NCBI GenBank assembly: GCA_038063915.1
Contig: JBBTUE010000004.1
Span: 38,719-102,718 of the forward strand
Length of the DNA: 64,000 bases
From: Patescibacteria group bacterium
Lineage (GTDB): Bacteria; Patescibacteriota; Minisyncoccia; Phycocordibacterales; UBA9973
Reading direction: 5' to 3'
Shown: positions 8,936 to 21,538 of the stretch, in pieces
Numbering within the stretch: the first letter of the stretch is position 1
Layout of the letters: every line of letters begins with the position of its first letter
Made by a program: the position numbers and the translations under genes
The notes under the pieces: generated by a model
The model's input: the letters and a program-made list of their open reading frames with translations, nothing else
The model's database searches: none
Told to the model about the DNA's origin: nothing

Positions 8936-9009
8936 CCACCCTTAGCTCAGTTGGTTAGAGCACAGAGCTTATACCTCTGGGGTCCTTGGTTCGAATCCAA
9001 GAGGGTGGA
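8936..9009 (+). tRNA. tRNA-Ile (anticodon UAU)
   Basis: Hand-folded cloverleaf: acceptor ccaccct/agggtgg, D-arm gctc/gagc, anticodon stem cagag/ctctg with loop c-t-TAT-a-c, T-arm cttgg-ttcgaat-ccaag, discriminator A. Confidence 0.8.
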
Positions 9010-9019
9010 CATTCATAGA

Positions 9020-9073
9020 CTTCTCCGAAAAAATCGGTCGCGCGCAAGCGCGCGTCCCATTTTTTCGGAGAAG
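9020..9073. repeat. 54-nt near-perfect palindrome (15-bp outer stem plus inner CGCGCG stem)
   Basis: cttctccgaaaaaat-cggtcgcgcgcaagcgcgcgtccc-attttttcggagaag; the outer arms are exact reverse complements. It sits between tRNA-Ile and the left inverted repeat. Confidence 0.7.
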
Positions 9074-9079
9074 TTCAAA

Positions 9080-9245
9080 CTTGTCCTCTCATTCTAGCAT
9101 TTGCGCGAACCTTTTTCGAGCAGAAAGACCAAGAGAACCAATGAACTCCGCCACGCGCGAGTACGCGCGTCTGCCCTCGCCCACCACACTCTCCATGCAT
9201 ATTTAATTTCGCGGGGGACTCTTTTTGATTTGGTATGGGTGGGGG
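9080..9245 (+). repeat. left copy of a 166-bp inverted repeat (partner at 17007-17172)
   Basis: Hand alignment to the reverse complement of 17007-17172 gives 161/166 identities. The ORF-track entries 9075-9269(-), 9101-9343(+), 16932-17150(-) and 17051-17245(+) encode near-identical peptides because they lie in these copies. Confidence 0.9.
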
Positions 9246-9326
9246 CGAGATGTAAGTATATATTAACATTTAGAATTCAATTTAATACATTTGCAAAATG
9301 TGATAAATTGTCGCATAATATGAAAT

Positions 9327-11792
9327 ATGGAAGGAATATCTAATAAAGGCATAGAAAAAAAGGACGAAATCCCGAATTTTCACCAAATTTTTGAGGATAG
9401 GTTAAAAATAAAAAAAATAGTAAAGGATGAACTTGGACTTGATTTGGATAATATAAAGGAGAATTCAAATTCCCCTCTATATACTATTTTTGAGAAACAT
9501 TATAAACAGGAGTACGATGAATTAAATGAAAAGGCCAAGCAATTTAAAAAAGAAGATTTTAAAGACAGTGAAGGCAAGGCAAAAACAGAGTTACAAAAAC
9601 AAAAAATAGAATATGAAAAAAGTGGAGCGGAGAATATTCCCCAAATAAATTACGAAAAAATACTTGCGGACAATCCAGGATTAAAAGAAGTTTTAGATAC
9701 AAAAAGTGCTATCTGGGCTTTGAAAGATTTTAGAATGAAGCGAACATTTGAAATTTTAAATCCAAAAATAGGACTAAAGGTTAAAGAGAAAAACGAAAAA
9801 ATGCTTGGAACAATTCAAGCAGGAATAGAAGACAGTTATGATAAATTAGAAAACGAAGATCAAACCCTTGTTCGACAAGCAGAGTTACTGGAAAATAAAC
9901 AAAATTTGAGCGAGAGCGGGCATATCTGTATTGTTCCTTCTGTTGCAAAAGATTTGGAAGCTATTGGAGACAGGATGCTTACAGGCAAGCCCGTATTTCT
10001 TCACGGACCGACTGGTACTGGTAAAACTTCACTTGCTCGCTATGCGGCTGTTCATTTTACGGGCAAAGATTCTGAAATGGTTTTTTGTAACCCGCAAACA
10101 AAAGAATCAAATGTTTGGGGCAAGACAGGCATAAAACCAGCACCAGGGGGAGCGATTGAGACAGTAGAGATTTACGGTCCTCTTGCGAAAGCAATGGTAG
10201 AAGGCAAGACTGTAATTTTCGATGAATTTACAGCTCTACCAAAAGAGCAAATGGTGTTTATAAAAGGTATTTTCAACGCCAAAGTAGGGGATAAGGTAAA
10301 TATTGTTGGTAATGGTATGGTAGAAATACAGCCTGGCTTTCAGATGATTTTTACGGCAAACTTAAAATCTGAAAAAAATCCAGAGAGACAGGATTTACCA
10401 CCAGAAGTCGCTCGTGAATTTGAACAAAATAATATAAAAATCAATTATATAAACAAGGAAGAGTCATACGACGTTATGCTTTCTCGTATGCTGGGTAAAG
10501 ACGGTTCTTTGGATATGTCTTTTTATGATCTTAATACAACATTGCCAAATCTAGCTCGCGTGATGTCAGAAATACAGGAGTCTTATACTAACGCCACAGA
10601 CAAAGAAGTCGCCAGAAAAGCAGGGGCACTCGATGCTTCTGGTAAAGTTCACTCTTTGAAGAAATTTGTAATGACACAAGGTTCTATTGAAGCTATACTT
10701 TCTTCTTGGAATATAGAGAAAAAAATGAAAAGAACAGAAAAATCTTTTGCTGAATTTTTAGATGAAAGATTTAAGACTGCTTTGACTTTTGAAGAGTATT
10801 CAAAAGAAGACAGAATACTAGCGGCTAAGATTTTGGCTTCCCGTGGTTTTTTACTGACATTAACACCGAAAGAGCTTGGCTTGCCCGACGATGTTTTTAC
10901 CTTTAATACCATAAAAGCAATGCGTGGCGCTGATGCAATAGAGGAGCTAAAATTAGAATCTGGTAAAGTAAAACATTTAAATTTAAAAGAAGTTGCCGAA
11001 CTTGACCCCTTTGATAAGAGAGCATTGCTCATGAAGAAACAAGCTGAAGGACTTTTAGAGGGTGAAACTTTTAATAAAGACGAATTTTTGACTGCTTCAA
11101 GCAAAAGATTTAATAAAATTTTTGGTAAACAACCGTCAGCAGAAGTTATAACGACTACTTATAAACAAGAATCCATAAATTTAGATATAGAGAAAAAGCT
11201 CGAAGAATTTATCTCATTCTATCAACAAAGTAAGATAGACTTACCACCAAACTTTGAGAACGACATAAGGGAGATTTGGGATCGGAATGCAAATGATATT
11301 AAAGAAAGCATAGAACAGAATGGTTTTAATGATATTCTTTTGATGCCTGAAAATATGCCTTTGCCCGATCTTCACTCTAAAATGACCGAAGGATATACAG
11401 CTACATATCAAGGCGATAATTTTAAACAAGGGGGCTCGTTTGCAGGTGCCAAAAGTGAGAAAGTGGATAAACCTAGAATAGTTTTGGTTCATAAAACTCA
11501 AAACTTAAAAGACAATCCTGAACTTGCAAAAACCTTTAACATTAAAGGCGAGGATGCAATTAAATCTGAAATTCTAACTCTCGAGGATTACCTAGTTTTC
11601 CAACGAAAGTATTTTAAAGAAACAGGTAAACACTTAGACGAAGACGGTTGGACTTGGCTTGCCACAAAATCGGGCTCTCGTCTCGTCCACGCGGCTTGGT
11701 ATCCGGATGTTGGTCAGGTCGATGTGGATGCCCGTGGTCTCGGCGATCGGCATGGCGATCTCGGCGCTCGCCCTTCCCGCAGTTTCTACTAA
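9327..11792 (+). CDS. DGR target protein 1: N-terminal coiled-coil region, central MoxR/AAA_5-like AAA+ ATPase, C-terminal C-type-lectin-like variable domain (VR1)
   Basis: Walker A FLHGPTGTGKTSLARYAA, Walker B VIFDEFTAL, sensor IFTANL. The C-terminus GWTWLATKSGSRLV...LGARPSRSFY carries VR1. No signal peptide or TM. Confidence 0.85.
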   Translation: MEGISNKGIEKKDEIPNFHQIFEDRLKIKKIVKDELGLDLDNIKENSNSPLYTIFEKHYKQEYDELNEKAKQFKKEDFKDSEGKAKTELQKQKIEYEKSGAENIPQINYEKILADNPGLKEVLDTKSAIWALKDFRMKRTFEILNPKIGLKVKEKNEKMLGTIQAGIEDSYDKLENEDQTLVRQAELLENKQNLSESGHICIVPSVAKDLEAIGDRMLTGKPVFLHGPTGTGKTSLARYAAVHFTGKDSEMVFCNPQTKESNVWGKTGIKPAPGGAIETVEIYGPLAKAMVEGKTVIFDEFTALPKEQMVFIKGIFNAKVGDKVNIVGNGMVEIQPGFQMIFTANLKSEKNPERQDLPPEVAREFEQNNIKINYINKEESYDVMLSRMLGKDGSLDMSFYDLNTTLPNLARVMSEIQESYTNATDKEVARKAGALDASGKVHSLKKFVMTQGSIEAILSSWNIEKKMKRTEKSFAEFLDERFKTALTFEEYSKEDRILAAKILASRGFLLTLTPKELGLPDDVFTFNTIKAMRGADAIEELKLESGKVKHLNLKEVAELDPFDKRALLMKKQAEGLLEGETFNKDEFLTASSKRFNKIFGKQPSAEVITTTYKQESINLDIEKKLEEFISFYQQSKIDLPPNFENDIREIWDRNANDIKESIEQNGFNDILLMPENMPLPDLHSKMTEGYTATYQGDNFKQGGSFAGAKSEKVDKPRIVLVHKTQNLKDNPELAKTFNIKGEDAIKSEILTLEDYLVFQRKYFKETGKHLDEDGWTWLATKSGSRLVHAAWYPDVGQVDVDARGLGDRHGDLGARPSRSFY
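11671..11780 (+). repeat. DGR variable repeat VR1 (last 110 bp of target 1 before the stop)
   Basis: Aligns to TR 12053-12162 with no gaps. There are 16 mismatches, 15 of them at TR adenines (hand-counted). The GC-rich 3' end tctcggcgctcgcccttcccgc is conserved and resembles an IMH (initiation of mutagenic homing) element. Confidence 0.85.
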
Positions 11793-12052
11793 TTAGGTAG
11801 TTTGTAGTTTGGTATTTGTATTTTTTTTATTACTTTTGTTTTGTATTCGATTTTTTTTCTTCGGTTAGTATAACCACAAGCAATTGATTGGTTTACCGAA
11901 GTGCTTGGGATAAGTGAAAGATGGCCTTGTGTCAGATAATTTATTTTATGTAGAAATAAAAAAGAACTGCAGTTTTGTATTGGGGATGTAGCCCTGATTA
12001 ATAGAGTATGGTTTCCAATCTTGATACGGATAATACAAAGCTAAAAGTGGGG

Positions 12053-12162
12053 CGGGCTCTCGTCTCGTCAACGCGAATTGGAATCCGGATGATGGTCAGG
12101 TCAATGTGAATGCCAATGATCTCGACTATCAGAATGACAATCTCGGCGCTCGCCCTTCCCGC
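12053..12162 (+). repeat. DGR template repeat (TR)
   Basis: In the target frame it encodes GSRLVNANWNPDDGQVNVNANDLDYQNDNLGARPSR: AAY (Asn) codons at the positions that vary in the VRs. 24 adenines in 110 bp. Confidence 0.85.
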
Positions 12163-12166
12163 CGTT

Positions 12167-12544
12167 CTAAGTCGAATTTCTCGAATACTTTATCCAACCT
12201 TGGGTCATTTTTCCTATTTCTTGTAGTTTGCTTTCAATATCCAGATAAACTCTTGCTTCTAGTATTTCACAGTTTAAAGAAATTCTAAAAAGTATTTTCA
12301 GAAGCTCTATTTTTGAATTTGCTTGAGCCAAGACTTTTTCTTTTTCATATTTTGATACTTGATTGGCAAACACAAAAAGCTCAATTCCATCTAATATTGT
12401 TCTTTCTATTTTTTCTCCCAATGTGTATCTTTCGTGTTTTGGAAATTTAAAGATGAGTTTATGTGTAACCTCGTAGAGTACAAAGAGTTTTATTACAACC
12501 GGTATTTCTAATTTTGAGAAGTCCTTATGAGTATTGTTATCCAT
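12167..12544 (-). CDS. avd: Avd-like accessory variability determinant (four-helix-bundle / 23S rRNA IVS protein family)
   Basis: EIPVVIKLFVLYEVTHKLIFKFPKHERYTLGEKIERTILDGIELFVFANQVSK matches the DLxVWKKAxxL...FPKxEKYxLxxQIRRAAxSIxxNIAEG pattern of PF05635/bAvd. It is divergent from the RT, its 5' end overlaps the RT start by 18 bp, and its stop abuts the TR end. Confidence 0.7.
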   Translation of the reverse strand: MDNNTHKDFSKLEIPVVIKLFVLYEVTHKLIFKFPKHERYTLGEKIERTILDGIELFVFANQVSKYEKEKVLAQANSKIELLKILFRISLNCEILEARVYLDIESKLQEIGKMTQGWIKYSRNST

Positions 12545-13516
12545 AAAAGTTATGATGAATTATTTAGTCTTAATAATATGATTCTCGCGTGGAGAATTTT
12601 CAGGCGGGGAAAGACAAGAAAAAAAGATGTAATGGATTTTGAAATGCATTTGGAGGATAATATCTTTTCTTTATATAAAGAAGTAAAAAATGATAAATAC
12701 AAGCATTCATCATATACATATTTTCAGATTTTTGATAATAAGAAACGAGATATTTATAAGGCAGAGGTCAGAGATAGGATAATACATCAGATTATTTATG
12801 ATTATCTACTATCTTGCTTTGAACCTACTTTTATAGCGGACTCCTATGCTTCGAGGAAAAATAAAGGACAATATAAAGCTCTTGACACTTTTTGCTATTT
12901 TATAAAACTTGCTAGTAGTGCTGGCAAAGAATGTTTTGTCTTAAAATGTGATGTCAAAAAGTATTTTGACAGTGTAGATCACGATATTTTACTTGTTTTG
13001 ATAAAAGAAAAAGTTTCCTGTGAAAAAACCTTGAAAATAATAAAAGAAGTCATATCAAGTTATCGTTCATCTACTCCACCTCAAAAAGGTATACCCCTAG
13101 GCAGTATTACAAGCCAGATATTTGCCAATATTTATCTTAATGTATTAGACCAATATGTCAAAAAAGAATTGAAATGCAGATTTTATATCAGATACAATGA
13201 TGACCTCGTGGTTGTTTTTGAAAATAAAAAACACATAGTGGGCATCAGAGATAAAATGATTCTTTTTGTGAAAGAAAAGTTATTTTTAGATATACCTATC
13301 CCAAAAACAAGTATAAGAAAAATCAGATGGGGGGTTGATTTTCTCGGATTTGTAATTTTACCTCAAGCTATCTTACTTAGAGACAAAACGAAGAACAAAA
13401 TCTATTCAAATATAAAGAGGAAAAATATACACTCATATCTTTCCCTTTTAAATCATTGTAATTCTCACAATCTAAAAGCAAAGATTCTGTCGATGGAAAA
13501 AACATATAAAATTTGA
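12527..13516 (+). CDS. DGR reverse transcriptase
   Basis: RT motif A KKYFDSVDHDILL, DGR-specific motif B IPLGSITSQIFANIYLNVLDQYVKK, motif C YNDDLVV. It is ~330 aa with no maturase or endonuclease domain. Confidence 0.9.
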   Translation: MSIVIHKSYDELFSLNNMILAWRIFRRGKTRKKDVMDFEMHLEDNIFSLYKEVKNDKYKHSSYTYFQIFDNKKRDIYKAEVRDRIIHQIIYDYLLSCFEPTFIADSYASRKNKGQYKALDTFCYFIKLASSAGKECFVLKCDVKKYFDSVDHDILLVLIKEKVSCEKTLKIIKEVISSYRSSTPPQKGIPLGSITSQIFANIYLNVLDQYVKKELKCRFYIRYNDDLVVVFENKKHIVGIRDKMILFVKEKLFLDIPIPKTSIRKIRWGVDFLGFVILPQAILLRDKTKNKIYSNIKRKNIHSYLSLLNHCNSHNLKAKILSMEKTYKI

Positions 13517-13528
13517 TAGTATGGTGGC

Positions 13529-15496
13529 ATGGAAGGCATATCTATCATTGAAGCAAAAAAGGCCAAAAAAGAAGGCGAAACCACAGAAACAGGCAACCAT
13601 ACTGAAGCCTTTGCCTTTGTTGAGGAAAATCGAGACTTTTTTGAACACCATGCAAAAGGCAAGATAAAAATAGAACAAGCTCCCGAGGGCTTGGACACTT
13701 TTGCTTTTAATTTGGAAAATAACACTATCTATATCAATTCGATGTTTTATGAAAAGCTCGGCTTTTCTAAAGAAAGGACTATCTTCGCCACCTTGCACGA
13801 AATAGAGCATTTTTTAGAAAAAATTCAGATGCTTTCCGAAGACGGAGGAGAGAAAAATTTTGAAAAATACCTCAAGAAGATAGAAACTTCAAAAGCATTT
13901 GGTTTGATGGATAATTGTGTAGCGGATATTCGTGAGAACAGAACCGTAGTTTCCAAAACTAATAAAGGAATGAAGGATTTGGAAGAAAATATTTATAAAG
14001 AAGTTTTATTTCCAGAAACGGATTTTACTGAGTCTCCTCGCCATATACAATTTTGCCAAGCTATATTGCGTGAAGCAAGAGTAGAGGGCGAACAATGCGA
14101 TGTTTCGCCCGAGGTGCGACAGAAACTTGATGAACTTAAAAAAGTAAAAGGACTTATGAATATAATGACGAATCCTGAGACGCCGATGTCGACACGTTTG
14201 AAATTACAAGATAAATATATTTGGCCGAAAGTGGAGGAACTTTTAGAAAAGGATATTGAAGATAAAAAGAATAAGGAAAATAAAGACGAAAACAAGCCAT
14301 CTGATTCCCAAGATAAAAAAACAGGTGAGGGCAAGGACAATAAACCTGGTGAAAAAAATGATGACACTAAAGGTCAAAAAGGTGAGAAAGATGATAAAAA
14401 AGGTCAACAAAAAGGAAAACCTGAAAAAGGCGAGGTAAAGGAAGGTAACCCCAATAAAATTTTTGCTGATGAATATGAGAAAGCAGAAAAAAAAGTTCCC
14501 AACGCTATACCGATCGAAGATATAAAGAAAGCTTTTAAAGAATGGAAGGAAGAAAAACAGAAAAATAGTCCCGACAAAGCAGATGAGGAATATGCTGAAA
14601 AAATAGGTGTTGAAAAGAAAGATTTGCAAGAATACAGGAGGATTGCAGAAGCATTGCAGAAAATCGTGAATCCAGAAACAAATGTGAGTGTAATGGAAGA
14701 GTTAAAAAACCTTTTTTCAAGAATTATTTCCAAAAGACTCAAAGAGAAACTTGCTCCGAAATATCCAGTTGAAGAAGGCGATGAGTTGGCTGACCCTGCT
14801 CAGCTTGTGTCTGATGTAAAATCCGGCAATTTAAGTCCGAAAGTATGGGAAGATACTGAAATTAAGGAGAGAAAAGGCGACAAATTTGGCGAAGTTGAAA
14901 TAACTCTTATATGTGATAGATCGAGTTCTATGACTGATGGTAATGGTCAAAAAGCGGTTGAGCAAAGAAATTCAGCAGTTTTGATGATGGAAGTTTTGAA
15001 AGATTTTGCAGAAATGTGTGATGAGGAGAAAATGAAGGTGGATAAACCACTTCTAGTAAAATCTGAGATATACAGTTTTGCAAGTAGTTCAGAAGATAAG
15101 ACGCCTCTTAAAAAAATGGGGAAAGAACTCGGTGAAGCTGAGAGAATAAATGTTTTAAAAAAGCTTTTTGATTTGCCGGGTTCTACTACTGATTTTAATT
15201 GTTTGGAAGCTATTAACGAAGGACTGGACAATGAAACCAAACAAAAAATTGCAATAGGAGAATTAAAAAAGATAGTTTTTGTGTTTACTGACGGCGGGAG
15301 TGACAGCGTTGCGCGAGTACAAAAGGCCTTGAAAGGTTTGCGAGATGATGGTATAGTAGTGGTCGGTATTGGACTAACAGAAGCGGGAGAACCCGCAAAG
15401 ACAACGTATGCACCAAACGCGCAAGTAGTAAATAATGTTATTGATTTGCCTATTGTTTTAGGTGAATTGTTAAAGGAGCATTTAAAGGATATTTAG
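13529..15496 (+). CDS. vWA-domain protein with an N-terminal HExxH-containing region and a Lys/Glu/Asp-rich linker
   Basis: N-terminal TLHEIEHF. A K/E/D-rich low-complexity stretch lies at about residues 240-330. The C-terminal vWA domain has LICDRSSSMTDG (MIDAS DxSxS) and FVFTDGGSD. Confidence 0.75.
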   Translation: MEGISIIEAKKAKKEGETTETGNHTEAFAFVEENRDFFEHHAKGKIKIEQAPEGLDTFAFNLENNTIYINSMFYEKLGFSKERTIFATLHEIEHFLEKIQMLSEDGGEKNFEKYLKKIETSKAFGLMDNCVADIRENRTVVSKTNKGMKDLEENIYKEVLFPETDFTESPRHIQFCQAILREARVEGEQCDVSPEVRQKLDELKKVKGLMNIMTNPETPMSTRLKLQDKYIWPKVEELLEKDIEDKKNKENKDENKPSDSQDKKTGEGKDNKPGEKNDDTKGQKGEKDDKKGQQKGKPEKGEVKEGNPNKIFADEYEKAEKKVPNAIPIEDIKKAFKEWKEEKQKNSPDKADEEYAEKIGVEKKDLQEYRRIAEALQKIVNPETNVSVMEELKNLFSRIISKRLKEKLAPKYPVEEGDELADPAQLVSDVKSGNLSPKVWEDTEIKERKGDKFGEVEITLICDRSSSMTDGNGQKAVEQRNSAVLMMEVLKDFAEMCDEEKMKVDKPLLVKSEIYSFASSSEDKTPLKKMGKELGEAERINVLKKLFDLPGSTTDFNCLEAINEGLDNETKQKIAIGELKKIVFVFTDGGSDSVARVQKALKGLRDDGIVVVGIGLTEAGEPAKTTYAPNAQVVNNVIDLPIVLGELLKEHLKDI

Positions 15497-15512
15497 TTAT
15501 ACAATACAAAAC

Positions 15513-16481
15513 ATGGAAAACATATCAAAAATGGCAAAAGCCCCAGAAAAGGCAAAGAAACCTGAAAAGTCTCAAGCAGAACTTCGCCAAGCCATAGAAG
15601 AGCGCCTTTTCGGAATGAAAGGAACTATTAAAGGTGTTATGGAGGAATACAAGCAAGCTTTAGAAGAAGAAACATTTCTAGATAAACAAGGCGAAGAAGA
15701 AGGAAACGGAGAAAAAAGAAGGGAAACAATGCAAGCTAAAATAAATGCGTTCCTTGATAAAGCGGAACAAATGAAAACGAAGTTAGATAGCAAAGAAAAA
15801 TTACCTAACTACACAGAATCAATATCTACTAATTACACTCATCCAGATAATAAAGTAGAAAATATCACTTTCTCTCTGGAAGAAAAATTAGAGGAAAATA
15901 TCGCTATCTACAAAAAAACCAAATTAGACTTGCCTCCAGATTTTGAAGATCAAATCAAAGAAATTTGGGAAAATAATATTGATGAAATACAAAAAGCAAT
16001 GCAAGAGAAAGGCTTTGATGAAATGCTTCTCGTACCTGGCAATATCCCCTTAACAGAATTAAATACTAAAATGACGGATGTATATACTGAAACGTGGGAA
16101 GACAGCGACTTCAAATCTGGCGGTTCTTTTACTGGTGCTAAAAGTGAAAATGTAAATAAACCACGTATAGTACTTGCTCACAAAACTCAAAATCTTGAAG
16201 ACAGACCAGAACTCAAGAAAACTTTAAATATAAAAGGTAAGGATGTAAAAAAGGATCAAACATTAACTTTAGAAGACTATCTAATATTTCAAAGAAAATT
16301 CTTTGAAGAAACCGGCAAACATTTGGATGAATCAGGCTGGACTTGGCTTGCCACAAAATCGGGCTCTCGTCTCGTCTACGCGGATTGGTATCCGGGTGGT
16401 GGTCTGGTCGGTGTGGTTGCCGGTGGTCTCGACTTTCAGATTGACAGTCTCGGCGCTCGCCCTTCCCGCAGTTTCTACTAA
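15513..16481 (+). CDS. DGR target protein 2: coiled-coil N-terminus, paralogous C-type-lectin-like variable domain (VR2)
   Basis: The C-terminal ~180 aa (DLPPDFEDQIKEIWENN...GWTWLATKSGSRLV...GARPSRSFY) is paralogous to the target 1 C-terminus. The 30 bp upstream of the VR and ~75 bp of 3' flank are near-identical to the target 1 locus. Confidence 0.8.
   Translation: MENISKMAKAPEKAKKPEKSQAELRQAIEERLFGMKGTIKGVMEEYKQALEEETFLDKQGEEEGNGEKRRETMQAKINAFLDKAEQMKTKLDSKEKLPNYTESISTNYTHPDNKVENITFSLEEKLEENIAIYKKTKLDLPPDFEDQIKEIWENNIDEIQKAMQEKGFDEMLLVPGNIPLTELNTKMTDVYTETWEDSDFKSGGSFTGAKSENVNKPRIVLAHKTQNLEDRPELKKTLNIKGKDVKKDQTLTLEDYLIFQRKFFEETGKHLDESGWTWLATKSGSRLVYADWYPGGGLVGVVAGGLDFQIDSLGARPSRSFY
16360..16469 (+). 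repeat. DGR variable repeat VR2
   Basis: 16 mismatches to the TR, all at TR adenines (hand-counted). It differs from VR1 at many of the same positions. Confidence 0.85.
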
Positions 16482-16539
16482 TTAGGTAACTTGTAATTTG
16501 GTATTTGTATTTTCTTTTCTTTTTTATTTTGTATTCGCA

Positions 16540-17006
16540 TTTTTTTACCAGGGAGTGATTCTATCGTGCACGCACGGGTGGGTAAGTCCGCGCGTAATCG
16601 CGCGGACTGGGGCAAGCACGAGAGATGTGAGCCTTCGGGCATTACCGCTAGTGGCGTCCATGACTAAAGGATGAGCGCCGAAGAAAAACGAAGTCAGAGA
16701 AATCTAAAAGCGAAAGCGACACACTAAATATAATAATGAAAAGCGTAGAGTGGGGGTGGCGAGGGCGGACTGCTGTAATCAGCAGAGCCCGACCCGGGGA
16801 GAGGAAACTTCCTCTCCCTAAGAGGAAGCGGGCAAATTGCCCGCACAGAGGCACCTAGGCGCGAGTAGCCCTAGCGGTAATGCCCGAGGCGGATGCCGAG
16901 GGTGACACCCCTTTAGTTCGGACATCCTATTTTATAATGAACGAAGGCACCGATGTATTTGGGTTTGAATTCCGCCGCTTCTTCTTAAAAGAAGCCTGAC
17001 CGAGCC
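16540..17006. ncRNA. GC-rich structured non-coding island; candidate structured RNA, family unassigned
   Basis: ~58% GC inside a ~35% GC genome, with no credible ORF. Many hairpins, e.g. gtccgcgcg-taat-cgcgcggac (16590) and a long-range pair ggcattaccgctag(16641)/ctagcggtaatgcc(16876). A G-rich-plus-tetraloop-hairpin motif at 16758 recurs inside the inverted repeat at 17062. Confidence 0.3.
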
Positions 17007-17172
17007 CCCCACCCATATCAAATCAAAAAGAATCCCCCGCGAAATCAAATATGCATGGAGAGTGTGGTGGGCGAGGGCAGACGCGCGTAGTCGCGCGCGG
17101 CGGAGTTCATTGGTTCTCTTGGTCTTTCTGCTCGAAAAAGGTTCGCGCAAATGCTAGAATGAGAGGACAAGC
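17007..17172 (-). repeat. right copy of the 166-bp inverted repeat (partner at 9080-9245)
   Basis: 97% identical to the left copy in inverted orientation. Two of the five differences lie in one hairpin and preserve it: an A-U to G-U change and one loop change. Confidence 0.9.
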
Positions 17173-17271
17173 GAAGCTTGTCCAAGGCGGAGGCAGACGT
17201 GCCAAGCCGGGGTCGCGAGATTTTTCAGCAGAAAAATACTTGTGACGACAAGTAATGTTATAATTTAACTT

Positions 17272-21253: not shown

Positions 21254-21281
21254 ACTATATAAGTATAGCAGAGTTTTACTG

Positions 21282-21367
21282 CGGAAGCGGTGAGATTCGA
21301 ACTCACGGTCCTTTTTGGGGACGACGGTTTAGTAAACCGTTGATTTAAACCACTCATCCACGCTTCC
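21282..21367 (-). tRNA. type-II (long variable arm) tRNA, Ser-like (G73), apparent anticodon ACU
   Basis: Minus-strand fold: ggaagcg-tg-gatg-agtggtttaa-atc-a-acggt-TTACTAA-accgt-cgtccccaaaaaggacc-gtgag-ttcgaat-ctcac-cgcttcc-g. The anticodon loop places ACT at positions 34-36. Confidence 0.65.
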
Positions 21368-21448: not shown

Positions 21449-21538
21449 GGAGACGTGTCGGAGTGGTCTAACGTACCTCCTTGCTAAGGAGGCAGGCTTT
21501 AATCGGCCTCGTGGGTTCAAATCCCACCGTCTCCGCCA
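21449..21538 (+). tRNA. tRNA-Ser (anticodon GCU), CCA encoded
   Basis: ggagacg...cctcc-ttGCTaa-ggagg-long variable arm-tggg-ttcaaat-ccca-cgtctcc-g-cca; close to E. coli tRNA-Ser. Confidence 0.85.

Follow-up and report, generated by a model that had tools for sequence, protein, structure and literature searches.

Inverted arms around a diversity-generating retroelement in a Patescibacteria genome: probable copies of a structured non-coding module in a family of cargo islands

The stretch of DNA analysed here (the window, 64 kb of contig JBBTUE010000004.1) comes from a Patescibacteria metagenome-assembled genome (MAG) from Hainich groundwater, and carries a diversity-generating retroelement (DGR) between two long inverted repeats, the arms. 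The arms are not a feature of the DGR: they belong to the backbone of a family of carrier islands in Paceibacteria (Patescibacteria). With a confidence a little above even, we further read them as the opening ~170 nt, or 5′ module, of a non-coding element of that backbone that is conserved and structured, likely an RNA transcribed inward, and their near-identity as a by-product of gene conversion. An earlier note on this DNA had suggested that the repeats were (a) the ends of a mobile unit, (b) substrates for inversion of the intervening segment or (c) two copies of a structured element. Contigs of relatives and metagenome contigs compared with the window are given L numbers (L001 and so on).

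The arms and their central hairpin

The arms and the sequence continuous with the right one are as follows.

9080-9245, plus strand: left arm; inward-reading copy that comprises the 5′ module alone, with an AT-rich spacer and then target gene 1 beyond it
17006-17171, minus strand: right arm; the 5′ module with which the full-length element opens; it reads inward and runs on into the body
16550-17005, minus strand: body of the structured element (the 'GC-rich island'); non-coding, with covarying hairpins and a long-range helix, GGGCATTACCGCTAG ... CTAGCGGTAATGCCC

The module shows its structure through comparison. The covariation set comprised 22 distinct sequences, several of them closely related. 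The central hairpin occurs with at least five unrelated stems, GCGCG-AGTA-CGCGC, CGACGAGC-TAAA-GCTCGTCG, CGACGAGAC-AAG-GTCTCGTCG, CACGCACGC-AAG-GCGTGCGTG and CGCTCCGAC-CAAA-GTCGGAGCG, and the alignment of all copies places every one of them between the same invariant flanks, AATGAACTCCGCC and TCTGCCCTC. Unrelated stems between invariant flanks indicate that structure, not sequence, is selected. In the outer pairs of the hairpin 97.7% of cells are paired across the 22 sequences, and four of the six pairs show double changes. For the whole module fold the paired fraction is 93%, and sliding the partners lowers it to 31-55%. Option (c) of the earlier note, a structured element in two copies, is therefore well supported.

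The helices of the module, read on the inward strand, contain 49 G-U cells and a single A-C cell, and this excess marks the inward-reading strand as the folding strand. When a single arm sequence was folded, neither strand surpassed its shuffles (z = -1.3 and 0.0), so that the structure is visible only comparatively. In both L101 (1767-1939 versus 11068-11237) and L109 (2101-2270 versus 10855-11027) the hairpin of one arm of the island differs entirely from that of the other, CACGCACGC-AAG-GCGTGCGTG versus CGACGAGC-TAAA-GCTCGTCG, between flanks that are 100% identical over 100 and 50 nt. A guide-like role was considered and rejected, neither the hairpin nor the module having meaningful complementarity to the adjacent tRNA or tmRNA.

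In the window itself, a repeat search and base-by-base comparison gave arms of 166 nt each, complementary at 161 of 166 positions (97.0%) and 7760 nt apart, with sharp edges at which similarity drops off abruptly on either side. The 166-bp repeats and their five mismatches had been recognised in the earlier note, whose right-arm coordinates (17007-17172) were one base off. Its description of what the arms bracket, namely target 1, the template repeat (TR), avd, the reverse transcriptase (RT), a vWA gene, target 2 and the GC-rich island, agrees with the gene calls, domain matches and GC profile. The differences (left arm/reverse-complemented right arm) are 9153 A/G, 9161 G/C, 9205 A/G, 9219 C/T and 9233 G/A. 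Two differences fall in the hairpin, ACGCGCG-AGTA-CGCGCGT versus GCGCGCG-ACTA-CGCGCGT, sequences which had been read correctly and described as compensatory. That description does not apply to the window: the stem change is one-sided and preserves pairing, with no double change. On the inward-reading strand the closing A-U becomes G-U, and the other change is in the loop. Both are private to the right arm, the two arms of L026, a contig from a different species, having the left-arm version. The underlying proposal, that structure at the hairpin is under selection, is nevertheless upheld by the homologues, which supply true compensatory changes in the form of the unrelated stems described above.

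A sensitive blastn search and an nhmmer profile found no further arm copy within the 64-kb window. A weak 24-nt 'third copy' at 16747-16770 was rejected as not colinear with an arm; the motif belongs to the interior of the body. Small open reading frames (ORFs) across the arms were also rejected as coding, the substitution pattern giving them no support.

The far-end module continues into a structured body

At the far end of the cargo the module runs unbroken into a conserved body of ~450-510 nt, present in the window, L026, L095, L097, L099, L101, L103, L109, L111, L113, L115 and L118. The full element of the window extends from 17171 to ~16550 on the minus strand, a length of ~620 nt, and reaches ~710 nt in L109. 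The GC content of ~16550-17250 is 52-56%, compared with 28-40% for the rest of the cassette. RNAalifold, applied to module plus body from seven sequences, predicted 118 pairs, 22 of them with compensatory changes. A long-range helix of ~38 bp joins GGGCATTACCGCTAG to CTAGCGGTAATGCCC in the window, with ATTTCC/GGAAAT in L026 and GGGAATTTCC/GGAATTCCC in L095, and hairpins within the body covary, for example AGTCCGCGCG-ATTA-CGCGCGGACT versus GAGTTTTTGTG-ATTA-CACAAAAACTC. The ratio of G-U to A-C cells in the body (42:20) favours the inward strand.

The body is non-coding. Across the three codon positions its variable sites number 29, 29 and 25; of 16 indels, 13 are not multiples of 3; and no frame is free of stops. 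Its origin as a decayed serine-recombinase gene was tried by tblastn and rejected. Neither arm, nor the body, nor a typical relative has a meaningful match in Rfam 15 at E<=10, and an Rfam scan of the window returned only tRNA and tmRNA hits and noise.

A family of islands beside tRNA and tmRNA genes

Metagenome contigs were scanned with exact patterns taken from two blocks conserved between the window and the diverged L020 copy. This gave 25 module loci; the same scan found none of the blocks in viral contigs, and there was no match among phage records, plasmid records or IMG/VR contigs. Inward-facing inverted pairs of modules, 4-9 kb apart, were located by nhmmer in the window, L026, L097, L101, L109, L111 and L115. 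Thus the search of other genomes for the 166-bp unit, which the earlier note had recommended, reveals 25 metagenome loci, with paired copies in L026 and five contigs. Many metagenome contigs terminate inside the element.

The complete islands share one order. At the near end a tRNA or tmRNA gene (tRNA-Arg, -Leu, -Asp or -Ile, or tmRNA) is followed by a large serine recombinase gene within its own inverted repeats, a spacer of ~25-50 nt and an inward module; then come a 73-aa XRE-type regulator and the cargo, and the far end is the second, inward module. The recombinase is adjacent to the near-end module in L020, L100, L101, L111, L116 and L118. It has Resolvase, Recombinase and zinc ribbon domains, and its best NCBIfam models are CcrB, XisF and CcrA, with scores far below the family cut-offs. 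Its own inverted repeats, which we call IR-A, are 111-119 nt long and 95-99% identical; one arm includes the last ~39 codons of the ORF and abuts the 3′ end of the tRNA or tmRNA gene. A flip of the IR-A segment would leave the recombinase ORF intact, and its tail and promoter context would change. The IR-A pairs are as follows.

L020: 9812-9930 and 11398-11516
L101: 9-119 and 1602-1712
L111: 7014-7132 and 8591-8709
L116: 6653-6765 and 8236-8348

The cargo includes restriction-modification genes (a type II system with C-protein, an MvaI/BcnI endonuclease and several methylases), LexA/S24 proteins, NUDIX, a pPIWI-associated nuclease, an AAA_15/21 ATPase pair and the DGR. No replication or relaxase gene was present in any island examined. 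The window and L026 have DGR cargo without recombinase or regulator, and L097 also lacks the recombinase. In the 64-kb window tblastn found no serine recombinase, the sole match being an antisense translation of the tmRNA. With the recombinase part missing, the island of the window is probably not mobile on its own.

The first of the earlier options, that the arms are the ends of a mobile unit, is therefore borne out in part. The arms do bracket the cargo of tRNA- or tmRNA-linked islands, an empty site exists and the unit is better conserved than its flanks, as described below; in the complete islands, however, the recombinase is encoded beyond the repeat pair, and none is present in the window.

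Insertion beside tRNA-Ile

The unit of the window lies between FtsH, a 158-aa ORF, tRNA-Ile(TAT) and a palindrome on the left, and a pilin-like gene and RecG on the right. The features at its two junctions are as follows.

8936-9010, plus strand: tRNA-Ile(TAT), identified by ARAGORN and Rfam; the insertion is downstream of its 3′ end
9019-9074, no strand assigned: palindrome with 27-bp arms, a GCGCGC core and T-runs on both strands; terminator-like both ways
17172-17271, plus strand: ancestral trailer of tRNA-Ile, which the insertion has shifted by ~8 kb; itself a small structured element that is conserved

Relatives that bear RecG keep the local synteny, with histidine kinase, response regulator and RecG converging on tRNA-Ile, FtsH, MscL, SmpB and tmRNA. 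In L009 (RecG 85% identical in amino acids) tRNA-Ile abuts the RecG stop codon, an empty site. The earlier note had suggested looking in related genomes for tRNA-Ile directly followed by the pilin gene; the uninterrupted site is there, with RecG as the neighbour. In L011, L018, L044, L059 and L076, a terminator hairpin and then a conserved trailer of ~80 nt come after tRNA-Ile, and this trailer is found in the window at 17172-17271, just outside the right arm. Its position there defines the inserted stretch as running from about 9011-9087 to about 17171-17176. The unit thus adjoins a tRNA gene and has an uninterrupted counterpart in related genomes, as is characteristic of an island.

L026, from a different species and a different study (RecG 78% identical in amino acids and 72% in nucleotides), has the DGR unit in the same place with both arms. 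Between the window and L026 the unit is 83% identical and the arms 92-94%, compared with 72-76% for the flanking FtsH and RecG, and relatives closer than L026 do not have the unit. Better conservation than the flanks, together with absence from closer relatives, argues for horizontal movement of the unit. The tRNA-side arm of L026 is without its first 24 nt and abuts the tRNA directly.

The heptamer CTTGTCC is directly repeated at 9080-9086 and 17177-17183, and the right junction has the dyad GGACAAG-CGAAG-CTTGTCC. The repeat cannot be called a target-site duplication, because TGTCC natively starts both the module (L026, L077, L106) and the trailer (L011, L059). The palindrome at 9019-9074 is homologous to the GCGCGC hairpin within IR-A (87-93% over 27-38 nt by blastn; L020, L101, L111). 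The suggestion that the left arm occupies a position typical of integration sites is sustained as regards insertion at tRNA-Ile; the palindrome is not an obvious attachment site and resembles a bidirectional terminator instead.

The trailer occurs at 17172-17265 in the window, 4565-4660 in L011 and 21485-21575 in L018, and also in L044, L058, L059 and L076. RNAalifold gives it a three-helix fold in which 13 of 26 pairs have compensatory changes, and no Rfam family matches it. An attachment site, a structured terminator and a small RNA are all conceivable roles. L018 contains a further copy, partial and 31 nt long, at a distance of about 60 nt. In L020 (6830-6904 and 9428-9817) the orientation of tRNA-Ile with respect to FtsH is reversed, SmpB and tmRNA occupy the strand opposite to FtsH, unlike in the window, and a serine-recombinase island is found at the 3′ end of tmRNA; these orientations and the island indicate local rearrangement around the same hot spot.

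Arm history, orientation and assembly

Arms resemble each other more within a genome (97.0% in the window, 96.5% in L026) than between genomes (91.5-94.4%), and five fixed differences are common to both arms of a genome. Together these observations indicate that the arms exchange sequence by gene conversion. L118 and L115 have cargo that is 98.5% identical over 7.6 kb, and the far-end module of L118 is a diverged paralogue, so that the inverted arrangement predates the identity of the arms. The presence of two inverted modules is thus the old state and presumably functional, with near-identity secondary.

All junction-spanning contigs (L003, L020, L026, L100, L101, L111, L116 and L118) show one orientation, assemblies reflecting the majority form. 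The possibility that L101 and L109 are two orientations of one island was rejected, since they show the same orientation viewed from opposite flanks.

Other assemblies of the window's population stop within the repeat: the last base of L004 is 9152, the first of L001 is 17047, and L007 corresponds to 9205-17046, exactly the interior. Such breaks are expected assembly behaviour at a repeat. L003, an independent assembly, crosses the left junction identically, and with L026 showing the same architecture in another species and study, the assembly artefact that the earlier note had named as a possible refutation is excluded. Positions 1-125 of L001 (17047-17171 of the window) carry left-arm bases at the equivalents of 9153 and 9161. 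These alleles are explained equally by bubble collapse at 8x coverage and by gene conversion, or a converted arm, in that population.

Proposed function and alternative explanations

In our preferred reading the element would act as a folded single strand, most likely an RNA transcribed inward from each end of the cargo. The near-end module would be a leader or insulator for the cargo, and the far-end module would open an ornate RNA of ~620 nt. Gene conversion between two functional copies would account for the near-identity of the arms, and their homology would permit cargo swaps between islands, with an occasional 7.8-kb inversion possible. A more specific version, to which we give somewhat less than an even chance, is that the right arm and the GC island form an undescribed class of large ornate RNA, specific to the serine-recombinase cargo or defence islands of Patescibacteria, with its 5′ domain reused in inverted orientation at the other end of the cargo and the swappable hairpin as a specificity element for island regulation or recombination.

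Several points weigh against this reading. Consensus scans found no conserved inward promoter. A terminator-like hairpin precedes the left arm of the window, and target 1 has its own promoter-like site, TTGCAA-17-CATAAT, after that arm, which implies that it would not depend on transcription through the arm. Both window arms contain an outward promoter-like site, TCGAAA-17-TGnTAGAAT (9091-9119, minus strand; 17132-17160, plus strand), which is weakly conserved elsewhere. The covariation score was reached by none of 500 shuffles, a control that overstates significance because the sequences are related. The differing hairpins within the L101 and L109 islands are not explained by the model. The predicted structure of the body rests on seven sequences, and its strand is not settled to the degree that the strand of the module is: the RNAalifold energy favours the opposite, G/U-rich strand (-107.6 vs -95.2), a choice by energy being biased that way. 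Finally, identical covariation would be expected from a single-stranded DNA form.

As to the outward site itself, its predicted start is at the outer edge of the arm; the right-hand one faces the pilin-like gene, and the -10 is weaker in relatives.

A transposon-like unit that has the arms as its terminal inverted repeats, these being read as DNA by a recombinase or transposase supplied in trans, and the DGR as its cargo, seems to us unlikely. Such a unit would account for the pairs bracketing cargo at seven loci, for recombinase-less units at more than one site (following tRNA-Ile in L026 and the window, upstream of FtsH in L097), for the empty site, for the 7-bp direct repeat CTTGTCC and for contigs that break in the arms as they do at repeats. 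The terminal inverted repeats expected of a transposon or miniature inverted-repeat transposable element (MITE) are present in the 166-nt arms at 97% identity, but the dispersed copies and cognate transposase are not: there are two arms only in 64 kb and no transposase in or near the unit. Moreover, the hairpin keeps its pairing and not its sequence, and may differ between the arms of one unit; the far-end arm runs unbroken into a structured body of ~450 nt that is not duplicated; the arms of L118 have diverged; and the native start of module and trailer means that CTTGTCC does not require a target-site duplication. An inversion switch of the Mu G or P1 C type, in which a 7.8-kb flip changes the end that faces an outside promoter, is in our judgement quite unlikely. 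The complete islands do have a serine recombinase just outside an inverted-repeat segment, the classic Gin/Cin layout, their concerted evolution means that the arms recombine, both window arms have the outward promoter-like site, and the right-flank contig L001 has left-arm alleles at two sites. Yet bubble collapse explains those alleles equally well, the recombinases are large proteins of the integrase/excisionase type (CcrB/XisF-like) and not small Hin/Gin-type invertases, and the window encodes none. Every junction-spanning contig has the same orientation, with the near-end module towards the promoter side of the cargo and the far-end module towards the body.

We regard it as very unlikely that the element folds as single-stranded DNA, for instance as a priming site or second-strand origin after uptake or excision, with one module copy for each strand. 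Covariation fits DNA hairpins equally well, the scans found no promoter, the strand signal of the body is ambiguous, and the hosts encode pilin or competence-type genes while interspecies transfer of the islands is implied. On the other hand, the many conserved G-U pairs of the module would be G-T pairs in DNA, which are less favourable; only the module, and not the body, is present on both strands; and no island has a replication or relaxase gene. The notion of an assembly chimera, or of a recent segmental duplication without function, is consistent with arms 97% identical and with several assemblies breaking inside the repeat, but is refuted by the paired architecture in a second species from another study and at more than 20 metagenome loci, and by a module conserved at 92-94% where the flanking genes are at 72-76%.

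The DGR cargo and neighbouring genes

The remaining features between the arms are as follows.

9291-9319, plus strand: promoter-like site TTGCAA-17-CATAAT, between the left arm and the target 1 ATG; from the consensus scan only
9327-11792, plus strand: DGR target 1, an AAA_5 (MoxR-like) ATPase with a C-terminal variable repeat (VR1) at 11671-11784
12053-12166, plus strand: DGR template repeat (TR), from repeat search and TR/VR comparison
12167-12544, minus strand: avd accessory gene (bAvd), from domain match
12527-13516, plus strand: DGR reverse transcriptase (RVT_1), from domain match
13529-15496, plus strand: vWA-domain protein, from domain match
15513-16481, plus strand: DGR target 2, with VR2 at 16360-16473

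The DGR is genuine, with RT, Avd, TR and two VRs that carry adenine-specific changes: differences from the TR are at TR adenines in 15 of 17 cases for VR1 and 16 of 17 for VR2. It varies the C-terminus of the MoxR-like AAA_5 ATPase (9327-11792), which is paired with the vWA protein (13529-15496). Because it shares a backbone with restriction-modification and ATPase defence cargo, there are hints that the DGR of the window may serve a conflict or defence system.

The ~66 nt downstream of each VR (11792-11857 and 16481-16546) are 87% identical and contain TTTTGTATTCG. A similar motif, GAATACGAAAC, is found at the inner end of the body in the non-DGR islands L095, L109, L111 and L115. Elsewhere in the window a tRNA-Ser(ACT) with an unusual anticodon (21281-21367, minus strand) lies back to back with tRNA-Ser(GCT) (21449-21538, plus strand); the same pair in L012 and L020 shows it to be conserved in the lineage.

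Significance and comparison with known systems

We found no description of these repeats, islands or RNA in the literature. In the repeats we see the backbone of a family of integrative cargo islands not described before in Patescibacteria, a group whose mobile elements are poorly known. The analysis also brings to light a candidate for a large, structured non-coding element of ~620-710 nt, with clear covariation and without an Rfam family; RNAs of such size are rare and tend to be informative. Modules that are paired, inverted and evolving in concert also provide a testable system for the likeness of ends, for cargo swapping and for flipping of the 7.8-kb cassette.

The islands resemble staphylococcal cassette chromosome (SCC) elements and other large-serine-recombinase islands (CcrA/B/C, XisF) in being small, site-specific islands with exchangeable cargo and a recombinase of the same broad family, with inverted repeats at the ends and insertion beside a conserved housekeeping RNA or protein gene. 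They differ in that tRNA and tmRNA genes are targeted and, by its sub-cut-off scores, the recombinase is not an orthologue of Ccr or XisF. In addition, the repeats are 170-240 nt long, structured and placed around the cargo instead of the recombinase, one end has the body of ~450-510 nt, and the window copy has no recombinase.

In the G segment of phage Mu (Gin) and the C segment of P1 (Cin), several kb lie within inverted repeats, which are long in P1, and the serine recombinase gene is immediately outside. The complete islands share this arrangement of a several-kb inverted-repeat segment with a serine recombinase gene just beyond it; in contrast to the phage segments, they have a large integrase-type recombinase, a single observed orientation, a covarying hairpin and one arm that is extended.

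ROOL and GOLLD are large ornate bacterial non-coding RNAs whose function is unknown, and which are found near tRNA genes in mobile elements. The element described here is similarly a GC-rich, multi-helix non-coding element of ~620-710 nt with long-range pairing, in a mobile element beside tRNA genes. It shows no similarity to their Rfam models at E<=10, occurs in another phylum and has its first module duplicated in inverted orientation, and it is at present a candidate RNA.

Lastly, as with DGRs on prophages and other mobile elements, a complete DGR is carried here by a horizontally moving unit. The difference is that the flanking repeats belong to a carrier island which more often bears restriction-modification or other defence genes, so that a whole DGR is carried and exchanged as a single cargo module among such systems.

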